DNA from: a virus | Taxonomy: Duplodnaviria; Heunggongvirae; Uroviricota; Caudoviricetes | DNA length: 22,875 nt | Direction: 5' to 3' (one strand) | IMG/VR virus record: IMGVR_UViG_2651869748_000003 | Span: 1 to 22,875 of that record | Shown here: positions 2,115-22,875 of the stretch, one piece after another | Position numbering within the stretch: the stretch's first letter is position 1 | Layout: every line of letters begins with the position of its first letter | Notes under the pieces: model-generated | Databases searched by the model: none | What the model saw: the letters and a program-made list of their open reading frames with translations, nothing else | Told to the model about the DNA's origin: nothing | Translations under genes and position numbers: made by a program

Positions 2115-2579
2115 ATGAACCGCGTACTGTGCGTGGTCATCATTGCCCTGCTGGTGGCCTGTGGTGCGCTTAGTCTGGGGCTGAATCATTACCGTGATAA
2201 CGCCATTACCTACAAAGCCCAGCGCGACAAAAATGTCAGAGAACTGAAGCTGGCGAACGCGGCAATTACTGACATGCAGATGCGTCAGCGTGATGTTGCT
2301 GCGCTCGATGCAAAATACACGAAGGAGTTAGCTGATGCGAAAGCTGAAAATGATGCTCTGCGTGATGATGTTGCCGCTGGTCGTCGTCGGTTGCACATCA
2401 AAGCAGTCTGTCAGTCAGTGCGTGAAGCCACCACCGCCTCCGGCGTGGATAATGCAGCCTCCCCCCGACTGGCAGACACCGCTGAACGGGATTATTTCAC
2501 CCTCAGAGCGCGACTGATAATAATGCAAAAACAACTTGAAGGGGCACAGCTATACATTCGAGAGCAATGCCTCAGATAA
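2115..2579 (+). CDS. Rz: i-spanin Rz (inner-membrane spanin subunit)
   Basis: N-terminal TMD ([18 protein letters not shown]), coiled-coil-like periplasmic region, Rz1 embedded in the +1 frame. Similar to lambda/DLP12 Rz as recalled. Confidence 0.9.
2335..2517 (+). CDS. Rz1: o-spanin Rz1 (outer-membrane lipoprotein), wholly embedded in Rz
   Basis: AAGGAG at 2322-2327 is 7 nt upstream of ATG 2335. Signal peptide with lipobox LVVVGC; proline-rich mature part ([15 protein letters not shown]); 60 aa as in lambda Rz1. Confidence 0.85.
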
Positions 2580-2886
2580 AAACCGGCCAAGGATAATCCG
2601 CTGAAGATTCGCCGGTGGCTAAAGTGTGCCAAGAGTTCAATTTACGCAATTACTCCAGTCGATGCTATGCACCGTCTTTGTGAAGTCAATGGATACCTGA
2701 TTTATTTCTGTGCGCTGTATCGTCGCTGTACTCTTGCATTAATTATGACTGTAGCCTGACGGGGAACTCCTTCTGCACAAGTGTGGGGGAATAATCAAAA
2801 ACGATGCACACCGGGGTTACCGGGTACACATATTTCATCATGCCAGCGAGTCCGGTTCTGGCACGGAAGAAACCGGACGTTATGAT

Positions 2887-3297
2887 TTAGTGCGGAAATA
2901 TTTGTGTAGTGTTCTGAATGTTCTCAGTAAAGAGTAATGAATTATCAAAGGTATAGTAATACCTTTTGTTTTCGTGGATATTTGTAATCCATCTGAAAAC
3001 CCCTGCTGTAGCAAGATTTTTCCTGTATTCGTAAAATGATAACTCTCCTGATTTGAATCCTTTTAAGGTGGCTTCTATAAGGCATTTATTTTTTGAAAAT
3101 CTTACATTTACAACCTTACCCTGTCCTTTTATTAAAACCGTATTATCGTTTTCAAGAACAAGATGAATATTCTCTGTGGCTAAATAGTAAATGTAATGTG
3201 AGACATTGTGACGTTTTAGTTCAGAATAAAACCAGTGATAGTTTAAATTATTTCGCACTTTATCGAATATTTGTTTAAAAATGGCAACCTGAGCCAT
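2887..3297 (-). CDS. DUF1398-like protein (lambda right-end ORF / E. coli YbcV-YdfO family), about 136 aa
   Basis: Minus-strand ORF in the AT-rich segment. Start chosen at the second Met (MAQVAIFK...) because GGAAGG lies 7 nt upstream; the track start at 3312 has no SD. Resembles the lambda right-end ORF and YbcV as recalled. Confidence 0.75.
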
Positions 3298-3354
3298 TGT
3301 AGTACCTTCCATGTGATATGAGGGGGCGTAGTCTGCACGATTATCTAAATTGCT

Positions 3355-3588
3355 TCAATCTGGTCTGACCTGTTTTCTGAGCAATTCAGTAATGTCACTC
3401 TTTTCTTTGTTTGCTTCAGGCGAAACTCTTTTTACTGAGCACAGTCTCCGGCGGCAGGCTTCAATGACCCAGGCTGAGAAATTCCCGGACCCTTTTTGAA
3501 CAAGAGCGATGTTAATTTGTTCAATCATCTGGTTTGGAAATCGGATGTTGCGGGTTGTTGTTCTGCGGGTTCTGTTCTTTGATGACAT
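3355..3588 (-). CDS. Small ribbon-helix-helix-like protein (YlcI/YnfO, DUF3950-like; lambda right-end ORF homolog), 77 aa
   Basis: GGGGA is 6 nt upstream of ATG 3588 on the minus strand. Arg/Thr-rich N-terminus, then a strand-helix-GxS-helix pattern (NIRFPNQMIEQINIALVQKGSGNFSAWVIEACRRRL). Same position and orientation as the lambda right-end ORF as recalled. Confidence 0.75.
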   Translation of the reverse strand: MSSKNRTRRTTTRNIRFPNQMIEQINIALVQKGSGNFSAWVIEACRRRLCSVKRVSPEANKEKSDITELLRKQVRPD

Positions 3589-3794
3589 AATGTTTCCCCA
3601 TATTCAGTGTTGCTGATTTGTATTATCTGAAGTTGCTTTTACGTTAATTTGACGCAGATCAATCAATACGATACCTGCGTCATAATTGATTATTTCTCGT
3701 GGTTTGATGGCGTACACACATGTTGTGATAAACCTTATATAGATGATAATCATTATCATTTCGTGGGTCCTTTCCGGCGATCCGGGCCGTTACG

Positions 3795-3806
3795 GGGCGG
3801 CGACCT
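3795..3806 (+). other. cosN (cohesive-end site), GGGCGGCGACCT
   Basis: The 12-mer and its flanks (TTACG upstream, CGCGGGTTTTCGCTATTTATGAAAATTTTCCGG downstream) match the lambda genome ends as I recall them. Lies about 185 bp upstream of the small terminase gene, as in lambda. Confidence 0.85.
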
Positions 3807-3843
3807 CGCGGGTTTTCGCTATTTATGAAAATTTTCCGGGATC

Positions 3844-3942
3844 CATGTCCGGTTTCTCTTCAAGTTAACTATATGAAAAATATAAAAACAGGTCTTCTGT
3901 GAACCGGACATGAACAAAAAACAGACATGTAAACCGGACATG
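3844..3942 (+). other. cosB-like region: three copies of an 11-bp element (AACCGGACATG at 3902-3912 and 3932-3942; inverted CATGTCCGGTT at 3844-3854) flanking an A-tract-rich segment
   Basis: Repeats seen directly. The arrangement (one inverted copy, AT-rich bendable spacer, two direct copies 30 bp apart) parallels lambda R3-I1-R2-R1, but the repeat sequence differs from the lambda R elements as recalled. Confidence 0.6.
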
Positions 3943-3989
3943 ACCGGTTTTGTTGTGATTGTGAGGTGAGAGTTTTTGCGAGGTGAGGA

Positions 3990-4499
3990 GTGGCTACGCA
4001 GACTGAAGTTGCCAGGCATTTAAGTCTGACCGATCGCCAGCTTCGCAGATTGCAGAAATTGCCGGGTGCCCCGATATCGAATAAGCGAGGGCAACTGGAT
4101 CTGGATGCCTGGCGCGATTTTTACATATCGTATCTGAGGAGAAGTAAAAACGATGTGCCTGATGGCGATAGCGAAGACGACTATGAGGAGAAATTGCTTA
4201 TTGCCAGATGGGAACTGACAGCAGAACAGGCTGTTACACAGCAGTTAAAAAATGAGGTGTCAAAAGGAAAACTTATTGACACCGGGTTCTGTATTTTTGC
4301 CCTCAGTAAGCTGGCAATGGCGTTATCCAGTACGCTTGATTCCATCCCTTTATCCATGCAGCGACAGTTTCCTGATTTAACACCGCGCCATCTTGACCAT
4401 CTGAAAACCCTTATTGCGAAGGGGGCAAATCAGTGTGCGCGGGCAGGGGATAAATTACCGGATTTACTCGATGAATATATCAGAGCAACAACTGAATAA
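3990..4499 (+). CDS. nu1: Terminase small subunit (Nu1-like; lambda-like C-terminal half, diverged N-terminal DNA-binding domain)
   Basis: GTG start at 3990. The C-terminal half aligns with lambda Nu1 as recalled (FCIFALSKLA...LPLSMQRQFPDL..RH.D.LK); the N-terminal approx. 40 aa (ATQTEVARHLSLTDRQLRRLQK) is HTH-like but diverged. 3' end overlaps the large subunit gene by 29 nt, as in lambda. Confidence 0.85.
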   Translation: MATQTEVARHLSLTDRQLRRLQKLPGAPISNKRGQLDLDAWRDFYISYLRRSKNDVPDGDSEDDYEEKLLIARWELTAEQAVTQQLKNEVSKGKLIDTGFCIFALSKLAMALSSTLDSIPLSMQRQFPDLTPRHLDHLKTLIAKGANQCARAGDKLPDLLDEYIRATTE

Positions 4500-18089: not shown

Positions 18090-18833
18090 ATGACAGAGAC
18101 AGAATCAGCGATTCTGGCGCACGCCCGGCGATGTGCGCCAGCGGAGTCGTGCGGCTTCGTGGTGAGAACGCCGGAGGGGGAAAGATATTTTCCCTGCGTG
18201 AATATTTCCGGTGAGCCGGAGGATTATTTCCGGATGGCTCCGGAGGACTGGCTGCAGGCAGAGATGCAGGGTGAGATTGTGGCGCTGGTCCACAGCCACC
18301 CCGGTGGTCTGCCCTGGCTGAGTGAGGCTGACCGGCGGCTGCAGGTGCAGAGTGATTTGCCGTGGTGGCTGGTCTGCCGGGGGGCGATTCACAAGTTCCG
18401 CTGTGTGCCACATCTTACCGGGCGGCGCTTTGAGCACGGGGTGACGGACTGTTACACGCTGTTCCGGGACGCTTACCATCTGGCGGGGATTGAGATGCCG
18501 GATTTTCATCGTGAGGATGACTGGTGGCGTAACGGTCAGAATCTCTATCTGGATAATCTGGAGGCCACAGGGCTGTATCAGGTGCCGTTGTCAGCGGCGC
18601 AGCCGGGCGATGTGCTGCTGTGCTGTTTTGGTTCATCGGTGCCGAATCACGCCGCAATTTACTGCGGCGACGGCGAGCTGCTGCACCATATTCCTGAACA
18701 ACTGAGTAAACGAGAGAGGTACACCGACAAATGGCAGCGACGCACACACTCCCTCTGGCGTCACCGGGCATGGCACGCATCTGCCTTTACGGGGATTTAC
18801 AACGATTTGGTCGCCGCATCGACCTTCGTGTAA
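18090..18833 (+). CDS. K: Tail tip assembly protein K homolog (JAB/MPN-like HSHPGG motif plus NlpC/P60-like Cys/His peptidase region)
   Basis: VALVHSHPGG..WLSEAD (JAMM-like) and GVTDCYTLF...NHAAIY (NlpC/P60-like) seen in sequence. Full ORF is 247 aa; an internal Met at 18234 would give the shorter product used in the older lambda annotation. Confidence 0.9.
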   Translation: MTETESAILAHARRCAPAESCGFVVRTPEGERYFPCVNISGEPEDYFRMAPEDWLQAEMQGEIVALVHSHPGGLPWLSEADRRLQVQSDLPWWLVCRGAIHKFRCVPHLTGRRFEHGVTDCYTLFRDAYHLAGIEMPDFHREDDWWRNGQNLYLDNLEATGLYQVPLSAAQPGDVLLCCFGSSVPNHAAIYCGDGELLHHIPEQLSKRERYTDKWQRRTHSLWRHRAWHASAFTGIYNDLVAASTFV

Positions 18834-19372
18834 AAACGGGGGCCGAAGCTATCCGTGCGCTGGCCACACAGATCCCGGCGTTTCGTCAGAAACTGAATGA
18901 GGGCTGGTATCAGGTGCGCATTGCCGGGCGTGATGCAGGCGAAACCGAATTATCTGCCCGTCTTAATGAGCCGCTGGCAAATGGTGCCGTGATCCACATT
19001 GTGCCGCGTCTGGCGGGTGCCAAAAGTGGCGGTGTTTTTCAGGCAGTGCTGGGTGCGGCGCTGATTGCTACGGCAATCTGGATGCCGGGAATCAGTATCG
19101 CTTTCAGTGACATTCTCTTTTCTATGGGGGCAGCGATGACGCTTGGTGGTGTTGCACAGATGCTGGCTCCTAAACCCCAAACCCCCCGAACGCAGACAAC
19201 GGATAACGGCAAACAGAACACCTATTTCTCCTCACTGGATAACATGGTTGCCCAGGGCAATGTTCTGCCTGTTCTGTACGGTGAAATGCGCGTGGGGTCA
19301 CGCGTGGTTTCTCAGGAGATCAGCACGGCAGACGAAGGGGATGGTGGTCAGGTTGTGGTGATTGGTCGCTGA
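18731..19372 (+). CDS. I: Tail tip assembly protein I homolog
   Basis: C-terminal GGVAQMLAPK..TPR.QTTDNGKQNTYFSSLDNMVAQGNVLPVLYGEMRVGSRVVSQEISTADEGDGGQVVVIGR matches lambda I as recalled; overlaps K by 103 nt, as in lambda. Confidence 0.9.
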   Translation: MAATHTLPLASPGMARICLYGDLQRFGRRIDLRVKTGAEAIRALATQIPAFRQKLNEGWYQVRIAGRDAGETELSARLNEPLANGAVIHIVPRLAGAKSGGVFQAVLGAALIATAIWMPGISIAFSDILFSMGAAMTLGGVAQMLAPKPQTPRTQTTDNGKQNTYFSSLDNMVAQGNVLPVLYGEMRVGSRVVSQEISTADEGDGGQVVVIGR

Positions 19373-19432: not shown

Positions 19433-22400
19433 ATGGGCAAAGGAAGCAGTAAGGGGCATACCCCGCGCGAAGCGAAGGACAACCTGAAGTCCACGCAACT
19501 GCTGAGTGTGATTGATGCCATCAGCGAAGGGCCGATTGACGGTCCGGTGGATGGATTAAAAAGCGTGCTGCTGAACAGTACGCCGGTGCTGGACAGTGAG
19601 GGGAATACCAATATCTCCGGTGTCACGGTGGTGTTCCGGGCTGGTGAGCAGGAGCAGACTCCGCCGGAGGGATTTGAATCCTCCGGCTCCGAGACGGTGC
19701 TGGGTACGGAAGTGAAATACGACACGCCGATCACCCGCACCATCACGTCGGCAAACATCGATCGTCTGCGTTTTACCTTCGGTGTGCAGGCACTGGTGGA
19801 AACCACCTCAAAGGGGGACAGGAATCCGTCGGAAGTCCGCCTGCTGGTTCAGATACAACGTAACGGTGGCTGGGTGACGGAAAAAGACATCACCATTAAA
19901 GGCAAAACCACCTCACAGTATCTGGCATCGGTGGTGGTGGGTAACCTGCCGCCGCGCCCGTTCAATATCCGGATGCGCAGGATGACGCCGGACAGCACCA
20001 CAGACCAGCTGCAGAACAAAACGCTCTGGTCGTCATACACCGAAATCATCGATGTGAAACAGTGCTACCCGAACACGGCACTGGTCGGCGTACAGGTGGA
20101 TTCGGAGCAGTTCGGCAGCCAGCAGGTGAGCCGTAATTATCATCTTCGCGGGCGCATTCTGCAGGTGCCGTCGAACTATAACCCGCAGACGCGACAATAC
20201 AGCGGTATCTGGGACGGAACGTTAAAACCGGCATACAGCAACAACATGGCCTGGTGTCTGTGGGATATGCTTACCCATCCGCGCTACGGCATGGGGAAAC
20301 GTCTTGGTGCGGCGGATGTGGATAAATGGGCGCTGTATGTCATCGGCCAGTACTGCGACCAGGCAGTGCCGGACGGCTTTGGCGGCACGGAGCCGCGCAT
20401 CACCTGTAATGCGTACCTGACCACACAGCGCAAGGCGTGGGATGTGCTCAGTGATTTCTGCTCGGCGATGCGCTGTATGCCGGTATGGAACGGGCAGACG
20501 CTGACGTTCGTGCAGGACCGACCGTCGGATAAGGTGTGGACCTATAACCGCAGTAATGTGGTGATGCCGGATGATGGCGCGCCGTTCCGCTACAGCTTTA
20601 GCGCCCTGAAAGACCGCCATAATGCCGTTGAGGTGAACTGGATTGACCCGAACAACGGCTGGGAGACGGCGACAGAGCTTGTGGAGGATACGCAGGCCAT
20701 TGCCCGTTACGGTCGTAACGTCACGAAGATGGATGCTTTTGGCTGTACCAGCCGGGGGCAGGCACACCGCGCCGGGCTGTGGCTGATTAAAACAGAACTG
20801 CTGGAAACGCAGACCGTGGACTTCTGCGTGGGCGCAGAAGGGCTTCGCCATGTGCCGGGCGATGTCATTGAAATCTGTGATGATGACTATGCCGGTATCA
20901 GCACCGGTGGTCGTGTGCTGGCGGTGAACAGCCAGACCCGGACGCTGACGCTCGACCGTGAAATCACGCTGCCATCCTCCGGTACCACGCTGATAAGCCT
21001 GGTTGACGGAAGTGGCAATCCGGTCAGCGTGGAGGTTCAGTCCGTCACCGACGGCGTGAAGGTAAAAGTGAGCCGTGTTCCTGACGGTGTTGCTGAATAC
21101 AGCGTATGGGGGCTGAAGCTGCCGACGTTGCGCCAGCGCCTGTTCCGCTGCGTGAGTGTCCGTGAGAACGACGACGGCACGTACGCTGTCACAGCCGTGC
21201 AGCATGTCCCGGAAAAAGAGGCCATCGTGGATAACGGGGCGCACTTTGACGGCGACCAGAGCGGCACGGTGAATGGTGTCACGCCGCCAGCGGTGCAGCA
21301 CCTGACTGCCGAAGTCACCGCAGACAGCGGGGAGTATCAGGTGCTGGCGCGATGGGACACACCGAAGGTGGTGAAGGGCGTGAGCTTCCTGCTCCGTCTG
21401 ACCGTAACAGCGGACGACGGCAGTGAGCGGCTGGTCAGCACGGCCCGGACGACGGAAACCACATACCGCTTCACGCAACTGGCGCTGGGGCGTTACACGC
21501 TGACAGTCCGGGCGGTAAATGCGTGGGGGCAGCAGGGCGATCCGGCATCGGTATCGTTCCGGATTGCGGCACCGGCAGCGCCTGTCACTATTGAACTGAT
21601 ACCAGGGTATTTTCAGATAACAGCGGTCCCGAAACTGGCTGTATATGACCCGACGGTGCAGTTTGAGTTCTGGTTCTCGGAAAAGCGGATTATCGATATC
21701 AGGCAGGTTGAAACCAGCGCGCGTTATCTTGGTACGGCGCTGTACTGGATAGCCGCCAGTAGCAATATTAAGCCGGGTTATGATTATTACTTTTATATCC
21801 GCAGCGTGAACACCGTAGGTAAATCGGCATTTGTGGAGGCCGTCGGTCGGGCGAGCGATGATGCGGAAGGTTATCTGAATTTTTATAAAGGGTTGATCAA
21901 TAAAACGCATCTCGGCAAGGAACTGCTGGAAAACTTTGAGCTGACGGAGGATAACGCCAGCAAACTGGAGGAGTTTTCGAAAGAGTGGAAGGACGCTAAC
22001 GATAAATGGAATGCCATGTGGGGCGTCAAAATTGAGCAGACCAAAGACGGCAAACATTATGTCGCGGGTATTGGCCTCAGCATGGAGGACGCGGAGGAAG
22101 GCAAGCTGAGTCAGTTTCTGGTTGCCGCTAACCGTATCGCATTTATTGACCCGGCAAACGGGAATGAAACGCCGATGTTTGTGGCGCAGGGCAATCAGAT
22201 ATTCATGAACGACGTGTTCCTGAAGCGCCTGACGGCCCCCACCATTACCAGTGGTGGCAATCCACCGGCATTTTCCCTGACATCAGACGGAAAGCTGACC
22301 GCTAAAAATGCGGATATCAGTGGCAGTGTGAATGCGAACGCCGGGACGCTCAACAATGTCACGGTAAATGAAAACTGTACGATTAAGGGCATGCTGGAGG

Positions 22401-22846
22401 CGACTCAGGTCAGAGGTGACTTCGTTAAAGCTGTATCCAAATCATTCCCGAAACAGGCTGGTACGTGGGGTAACACGGAAACACCAAACGGGACGGTTAC
22501 AGTCACCATCAGCGATGATCATAACTTTGACCGTCAAATCATTATTCCGCCCATTATCTTTAACGGAATAGCGTATAGCGATCCGGGAAGTGGTAATAAC
22601 CCGGGAGGTACAAGATACACGGGGTATGGTTTTGAAGTTCGCAAAAACGGTGTATTAATCGCATCCAGAGAAACTAAAGGGGCCATTCCCGGTAGCTACA
22701 GTGCGGTTATTGATATGCCGAGTGGCAGGGGAAGCGTCACTCTGGAGTTTAAGGTTTTCCATAAAGGCAATCAGTGGGCAGGTAATATCACCGACTGTAC
22801 GGTGATTGTGACCAAAAAAGCCGCTTCCGGCATCAGTATTCGTTGA
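19433..22846 (+). CDS. J: Tail tip / central tail fiber host-specificity protein J homolog, 1137 aa, with diverged C-terminal domain
   Basis: About 1000 N-terminal residues collinear with lambda J as recalled; the last approx. 150 aa differ and the DNA becomes more AT-rich. Confidence 0.95.
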
Positions 22847-22875
22847 AATTGTTATAACCCATATAAGGGCACCAG

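Follow-up and report, generated by a model that had tools for sequence, protein, structure and literature searches.

A 434-type receptor-binding tip on the lambda-like J protein of a lambdoid phage late region

The J protein encoded at the end of this lambdoid late region raises the question of whether its C-terminal tip is an exchanged receptor-recognition module and, if so, which outer-membrane receptor it would recognise. We analysed a 22,875-nt stretch of DNA, called the window throughout (IMG/VR virus record IMGVR_UViG_2651869748_000003, positions 1 to 22,875). An earlier reading of the letters alone (the sequence-only reading) had held that J tracks lambda J over most of its length and that from 22380 its last approximately 150 residues differ from those of lambda and are encoded by AT-richer DNA. 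It took this as the mark of a swapped receptor-recognition module, so that a receptor other than LamB was probable.

The J gene and its break with lambda

The window corresponds to a lambdoid phage or prophage late region, in the order P21-type holin, lysozyme, Rz, a reverse-strand DUF1398 gene, Nu1, A, the head and tail genes and finally J. By open reading frame order, J closes the tail gene cluster, preceded by H, M, L, K and I; a K-like protein (JAB and NlpC/P60 domains) and then Lambda_tail_I lie directly upstream of it, and an annotated relative has the same gene order. The window ends 29 nt past the J stop codon and does not reach the genes for the side tail fibres, a further influence on host range. 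The J frame (19433–22846, plus strand) is intact and encodes a tail-tip attachment and host-specificity protein of 1137 aa, and the open reading frame list held no minus-strand frame of at least 80 aa overlapping 22380–22846. J matched the lambda J structures 8iyk and 8k35 over its full length (phmmer, E=0), and Pfam reported FNIII-A_GpJ, Phage-tail_3, Ig_J, Ig_J_second, Phage_Tail_Tip and Ig_GpJ_C in canonical order, all above cut-offs. These matches place the protein in the lambda gpJ family. The segments of the gene and the features of its tip are collected in Table 1.

Table 1. Segments of J and features of its tip, in window coordinates
Feature	Position	Strand	Basis
J hub domains and first Ig/FNIII domain, common lambda-like allele	19433..21499	+	92–100% DNA identity to lambda per 60-nt interval
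Second Ig/FNIII domain and helical shaft segment of J, minority allele	21500..21940	+	Mismatches to six reference J genes
Perceval-like tract: beta-prism fibre, receptor-binding domain and first 29 nt past the stop	21941..22875	+	Near-identity to Perceval
NENCTI motif, aa 979–984	22367..22384	+	Nucleotide alignment at the junction, protein alignments
434-type receptor-binding domain, aa 983–1137	22379..22846	+	Sequence identity, Pfam, AlphaFold model
Loop L1, aa 1004–1019, putative receptor-contact loop	22442..22489	+	Model, lambda alignment
Loop L2, aa 1046–1063, putative receptor-contact hairpin	22568..22621	+	Model, lambda alignment
Loop L3, aa 1081–1086, TKGAIP	22673..22690	+	Inter-strand in the model; 1-residue indel relative to lambda
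Loop L4, aa 1112–1121	22766..22795	+	Model, lambda alignment

Aligned to lambda J (J02459), the gene showed DNA identity of 0.93–0.99 per 90-nt interval up to 22312, 0.86 in the interval 22313–22402, and 0.41–0.53, with gaps, from 22403 to the stop codon. Across the junction, mismatches climbed from 5–13 to 50–62 per 100 nt, and identity fell from ~95% to ~45% within ~20 nt. The earliest mismatch cluster lay at 22384–22395, directly 3' of the NENCTI codons in the nucleotide alignment, so the start of 22380 proposed earlier was accurate and J does track lambda until ~22385. The protein followed the same course, being nearly identical to lambda J upstream of aa 983 and only 39% identical (57/146, 13 gap columns) over the 155 residues from there to its end, which upholds the earlier claim about the last approximately 150 residues. 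NENCTI is the last block common to lambda-type, 434-type and A8-type J and marks the tip-family junction. In published work, lambda aa 964, in one of the last shared stretches, served as the graft point for natural gpJ tips on lambda J (PMC11338833).

Base composition followed this break in part. GC and GC3 were 0.595 and 0.717 over 19433–21592, 0.501 and 0.599 over 21593–22378, and 0.477 and 0.463 over 22400–22846; the profile across J is thus not flat, and GC drops in two steps. The first step, at ~21600, is present in lambda J too and therefore gives no sign of a swap. The second is module-specific: the lambda tip has a GC of 0.553, and the tips of phage 434 (0.477) and of the A8 type (0.479) match the window. 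Among all 447-nt intervals of the sequence, the J tip falls within the lowest 9% for GC, and in the head and tail genes (from ~4340) equally AT-rich intervals start only at 21585–21590 and at 22268–22429, the latter overlapping the C-terminal region of J. The claim of an AT-richer C-terminus accordingly holds for the DNA past the junction, but not for the part of the fall that begins upstream and is shared with lambda. The lowest GC in the window is found at 2459–4250 (minimum 0.32 near 2875), a stretch that contains the reverse-strand DUF1398 gene.

Relatives of the tip and the mosaic history of J

A DNA search with the last 447 nt of J gave 74 phage records with full-length coverage at 91–99.8% identity. 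PhiR49_1, Perceval, IdasGreatGrand and many long-tailed Stx1a- and Stx2c-converting phages, those of E. coli O157 among them, were 99.6–99.8% identical to the tip; the cdtI phage and Ayreon were 99.3% identical, and phage 434 and the hybrid "Lambda h434 imm21" were 92.2% identical (~8% DNA divergence). Perceval and PhiR49_1 are plaque-forming phages, and Ayreon was isolated on a K-12 derivative. At the protein level, the tip was 100% identical to those of Perceval (OV696612), PhiR49_1 (PV340568) and the database proteins P0001 and P0002 (two clusters). The tip type is also common in bacterial genomes, a module-spanning 576-nt query (22300–22875) being at least 80% present in 2082 of 5426 complete E. 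coli genomes.

We aligned the tip to J proteins of known receptor, a check that the sequence-only reading had proposed. Identity was 95.5% to 434 (OmpC), with 148 of 155 residues identical and no gaps, 46% to the A8 type (OmpC) and 39% to lambda (LamB). The J proteins of 434 and of the window are both 1137 aa long, have the same loop lengths and meet the lambda-like body at the same junction, differing in the 155-residue tip by seven substitutions. The A8/phage 21 type was far more distant (46% to the A8 type and 43% to phage 21, with 11 gap columns each), and against the lambda type there were indels in all four loops, the segments around lambda residues 1012 and 1107 not being conserved. From these alignments, the tip is a member of the 434-type J receptor-binding domain family. 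The h434 hybrid record and 434 carry the same J tip, and it was with the lambda h434 hybrids that the host-range determinant of 434 became known.

Over the 2.9 kb of J that precede the tip, phages with more than 99.6% DNA identity to it matched the window at only ~95%, the same level as lambda, and the rest of the genomes of Perceval, PhiR49_1 and the O157 Stx phages differed from the window. The best whole-window matches in complete E. coli genomes stopped matching at 22378–22389. One of them, the O111:H2 12A prophage, matched the window at 95.5% over 96% of its length and is the only such relative examined for its tip; its J is 1132 aa long, and its tip is of a third type, almost identical to that of A8. 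The abrupt break, the same tip on ~95% identical backbones and a close relative with an A8-type tip together bear out the proposal of a swapped receptor-recognition module: the tip is a swapped module from a different, lower-GC allele family than that of lambda. The alternative, that the C-terminus diverged gradually in place from a lambda-like ancestor under strong diversifying selection without any exchange, has some basis, as the J tip region is known to be under such selection (PMC6646904) and the fold and the core motifs DDHxFDRQI, IDMPxGxG and KKxxxGISI are common to lambda, so that the tips are homologous. We nevertheless give it next to no credence, since gradual divergence fits neither a collapse of identity over so few nucleotides nor a shift in GC3 at the junction, and since the nearly identical tip sits on backbones that are themselves only 95% identical to the window, with another tip type in the closest backbone relative examined.

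The exchange need not have taken place at the junction itself. A tract nearly identical to Perceval begins at ~21940 and is ~0.9 kb (935 nt) long, with 10 mismatches from 21963 to 22875, only 2 of them after 22270. As aligned, 22385 is the boundary of the tip families and not necessarily the crossover point in the history of the window phage itself; because the Perceval-like tract starts well upstream of it, the actual crossover was probably in the fibre-coding part of J. The tip arrived within this tract, by homologous recombination in conserved flanking J sequence.

Upstream of the tract, the segment 21500–21940 differed from all six reference J genes (phages and prophages) by 9–19 mismatches per 100 nt. 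It was 100% identical to J in E. coli FDAARGOS_1059 and in a second O111:H2 12A prophage, and 99.6% identical to J in EPEC E2348/69. The allele is a minority one, with at least 99% identity in only 156 of 4501 matching records, and an exact 60-mer from this rare patch at 21.6 kb had no match in species-representative genomes. The first part of the gene was mostly 92–100% identical per 60-nt interval to 434, PhiR49_1, Perceval and phage 21 as well, with single intervals down to 83%. J is in this sense a mosaic of three or more parts. From phylogenetic incongruence, the J "specificity region" (lambda aa 960–1132) has been described as independently inherited (PMC6646904).

Fold and putative contact loops of the tip

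Pfam placed Ig_GpJ_C at aa 1001–1136 of J (E=9e-26). When the PDB was searched by sequence with only the tip as query, all matches were J receptor-binding domains, with A8 gpJ (9wca/9wcb) at E=2.7e-29 and lambda J (8xcj/8xck, 8iyk) at ~1e-20 (best E=7e-21). A protein database search with the tip gave mostly short fragments and some chimeric gene calls; the chimeric calls P0052, P0055, P0057 and P0063 and the truncated fragment P0036 were left out, and aa 968–1137 were modelled as a monomer with AlphaFold2 from an alignment of 14 sequences. The model is an all-beta sandwich (mean pLDDT 80.4, pTM 0.71). Its top four Foldseek matches in the PDB were 9wcb, 8xck, 9wca and 8xcj (TM 0.69–0.72), all J entries, the next match being ten orders of magnitude weaker. 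As modelled, the tip has the Ig-like J receptor-binding fold.

The A8 gpJ chimera in complex with OmpC (9wca, 9wcb; 9wcb with EDL933 OmpC) is the closest solved structure to the tip by both sequence and fold. Like the window J, A8 gpJ has a lambda-like body joined at the same junction, and its tip binds OmpC; unlike the window tip, it has different loop lengths, which together with its low identity places it in a separate tip family. The O111:H2 12A prophage is its natural counterpart, and the phage 21 tip is a relative. The lambda J–LamB complexes (8xcj, 8xck) share with the window tip the Ig-like fold (TM ~0.7), the position at the end of a beta-prism fibre and the core motifs, and differ from it in sequence, in the four loops and in tip GC (0.55 compared with 0.48).

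The lambda J tip domain is Ig-like, and its four bottom loops, L1 to L4, insert into the porin (PMC11101478). All four indels of the window tip relative to lambda fall within alternate inter-strand segments of the model (L1 to L4 in Table 1). L1 lies between the first and second main strands and is mainly non-strand apart from two internal strand stretches of 3 residues each; its length exceeds that of the lambda counterpart by 2 residues, and it contains the position aligned with lambda host-range residue 1012. L2 is 6 residues longer than in lambda and includes the family-polymorphic positions 1049 and 1050. L4 is shorter than in lambda (4–6 gap columns, depending on the alignment), aligns with the lambda segment containing host-range residue 1107 and includes the family-polymorphic position 1115 (W, G or R), with 1108 and 1110 on the preceding strand. 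The motifs DDHxFDRQI and IDMPxGxG sit in the intervening loops. From the alternating strand topology of the monomer model, we infer that the four indel-bearing segments face the receptor.

The seven substitutions between the window and 434 (window to 434: S1004A, Q1008K, A1009V, N1019D, S1049D, D1050N and R1099G) lie mainly in L1, which holds four of them, and L2, plus a neighbouring loop. Their sites account for most of the positions that vary among 27 family members, the other main ones being 1108, 1110 and 1115.

A divergent, AT-richer gene end could also be the non-functional remnant of a decaying prophage, and it is true that no exact match to the window was found in complete E. coli genomes, nor any whole-window match above ~95.6% among phage records or complete E. 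coli genomes. Decay is nonetheless very improbable: the frame of 1137 codons is intact and as long as that of 434 J, phages that have been propagated as plaques carry the identical tip protein, the Pfam and structural matches are strong over the whole domain, and the late genes neighbouring J are all intact.

The window J consists of ~982 lambda-like residues (hub, Ig/FNIII domains, helical shaft and beta-prism fibre) joined at NENCTI to an Ig-like domain of 155 residues. By analogy with the lambda J–LamB and A8 gpJ–OmpC complexes, three copies of this domain would make up the distal end of the central tail fibre, with their four bottom loops entering a trimeric porin at its extracellular face. 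When lambda J binds its porin, the three domains move apart and the rearrangement leading to tail opening begins (PMC11101478); the trigger is presumably the same for the window tip, in which spreading of the tips would likewise lead to opening of the tail tube.

The predicted receptor and its meaning

The receptor of phage 434 is OmpC, and with the 434 J gene lambda switches its binding from LamB to OmpC (PMC11101478, PMC3509688). Because the tip is 95.5% identical to that of 434 and has identical loop lengths, it most likely binds the porin OmpC and not LamB. The earlier expectation of a receptor other than LamB is in line with this homology and with the loops corresponding to 1012 and 1107 not being conserved; the tip did not align closely to lambda J with conserved LamB contacts, as it would have to for the opposite view. 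We hold the OmpC prediction with high but not full confidence because J tips change porin easily. In lambda J, residues 1012 and 1107 are key sites at which few substitutions gain use of OmpF (PMC6646904), and phage 21, which natively uses LamB, adds OmpC use by one mutation (PMC11336670). The tip of phi330, an unrelated OmpC-dependent EHEC siphophage, shows only 35–40% identity to 434 and lambda (PMC12502783).

The main alternative is that the tip is of the 434 type by descent but that its loop substitutions have shifted it to a porin other than OmpC, such as LamB or OmpF, or to more than one. The seven differences that separate it from its OmpC-binding relative are mostly in or beside putative contact loops, single or few substitutions switch porin in the J of lambda and phage 21, and the phage 21 (LamB) and A8 (OmpC) tips are themselves 80% identical. 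We nevertheless regard this as unlikely. The window and 434 tips, with no difference in loop length, are far closer than those of phage 21 and A8, the substitutions are conservative and polymorphic across the whole family (S/A, Q/K, A/V, N/D, S/D, D/N and R/G), and no report of a non-OmpC receptor for the 434-type family was found. Neither the Perceval paper nor the preprint using the PhiR phage panel gave receptor data for the phages with an identical tip, and the literature on mEp460, Ayreon, cdtI and phi458 consisted of genome announcements and the J-evolution paper; no experiment with this exact allele turned up in these sources.

With OmpC as the most likely receptor, the polymorphic sites in and next to the loops probably tune which OmpC variants are recognised. 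Such tuning has precedents, as the A8 and 1A2 gpJ tips accept different OmpC variants (PMC11338833) and the gpJ variant 1A2 (Eligo) is specific for the OmpC of EDL933. A stronger version, in which the loop polymorphisms relative to 434 retarget the tip to different OmpC variants or add a second porin, is a tentative idea that we think would more probably fail than hold. If it did hold, natural 434-type tips would form a series in which each allele binds its own set of OmpC variants and evolves together with the diversity of ompC.

Each component had been recorded before, from the tip allele and its junction to the modular exchange, the fold and the probable receptor, and the finding is an ordinary one. 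It brings no new concept: lambdoid phages were already described as exchanging the specificity region of J, and natural J tips have already been grafted onto lambda at the same junction for DNA delivery. The prediction that follows is that the phage or prophage of the window adsorbs through OmpC and is indifferent to LamB. If so, it would bear on host range, on the routes by which hosts become resistant and on superinfection patterns in the numerous E. coli strains with this tip.

A close relative with a different J tip

Among complete E. coli genomes, the nearest relative of the whole window was a prophage of E. coli O111:H2 12A (L006, NZ_CP077479.1), with 95.5% identity over 96%. No whole-window match above about 95.6% identity was found among phage records or complete E. 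coli genomes. The match to L006 ends at position 22,389 (compared stretch: 1–22,389), and the 1132-aa J of this prophage carries a tip, the C-terminal receptor-binding domain, that is almost the same as that of the engineered OmpC-binding "A8" gpJ (PDB 9wca/9wcb). The window and L006 are thus a natural pair with similar tails and differing tips.

Features upstream of the tip

Features of the window discussed in this section
Feature	Position	Strand	Remarks
Low-GC island	2459–4250		Between lysis genes and terminase
DUF1398 gene	2887–3312	minus	141 aa; Pfam E=3e-43
K homologue	18090–18833		ORF; JAB plus NlpC/P60
Tail assembly protein I homologue	18731–19372		ORF as mechanically listed
J mid-segment	21500–21940		Part of J coding for second Ig/FNIII domain and helical shaft; minority allele

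The island, whose GC content falls to a minimum of 0.32 near 2875–3320, contains the DUF1398 gene and looks like an inserted accessory gene. Further along, the mechanically listed I ORF overlaps the K homologue by about 100 nt. In the annotated relative L007, the start of I overlaps the last 4 nt of K, so the true start of I in the window is probably near 18,830.

Within J, the mid-segment showed 9–19 mismatches per 100 nt against lambda, 434, Perceval, PhiR49_1 and two E. coli prophages. The J genes of E. coli FDAARGOS_1059 and a second O111:H2 12A prophage matched it at 100% identity, and J of E2348/69 at 99.6%. Identity of at least 99% to this segment occurred in only 156 of the 4501 matching records, and an exact 60-mer taken from it (21590–21649) was absent from species-representative genomes.

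Tip similarity and receptor

We also compared the A8-type tip of L006 (3442–3936) with the J tip of phage 21 (L005, OL657228.1, 4164–4673), which aligned without gaps at 80% identity. LamB is the reported native receptor of phage 21 (PMC11336670), whereas OmpC is that reported for A8. J tip similarity at the 80% level does not fix the receptor.
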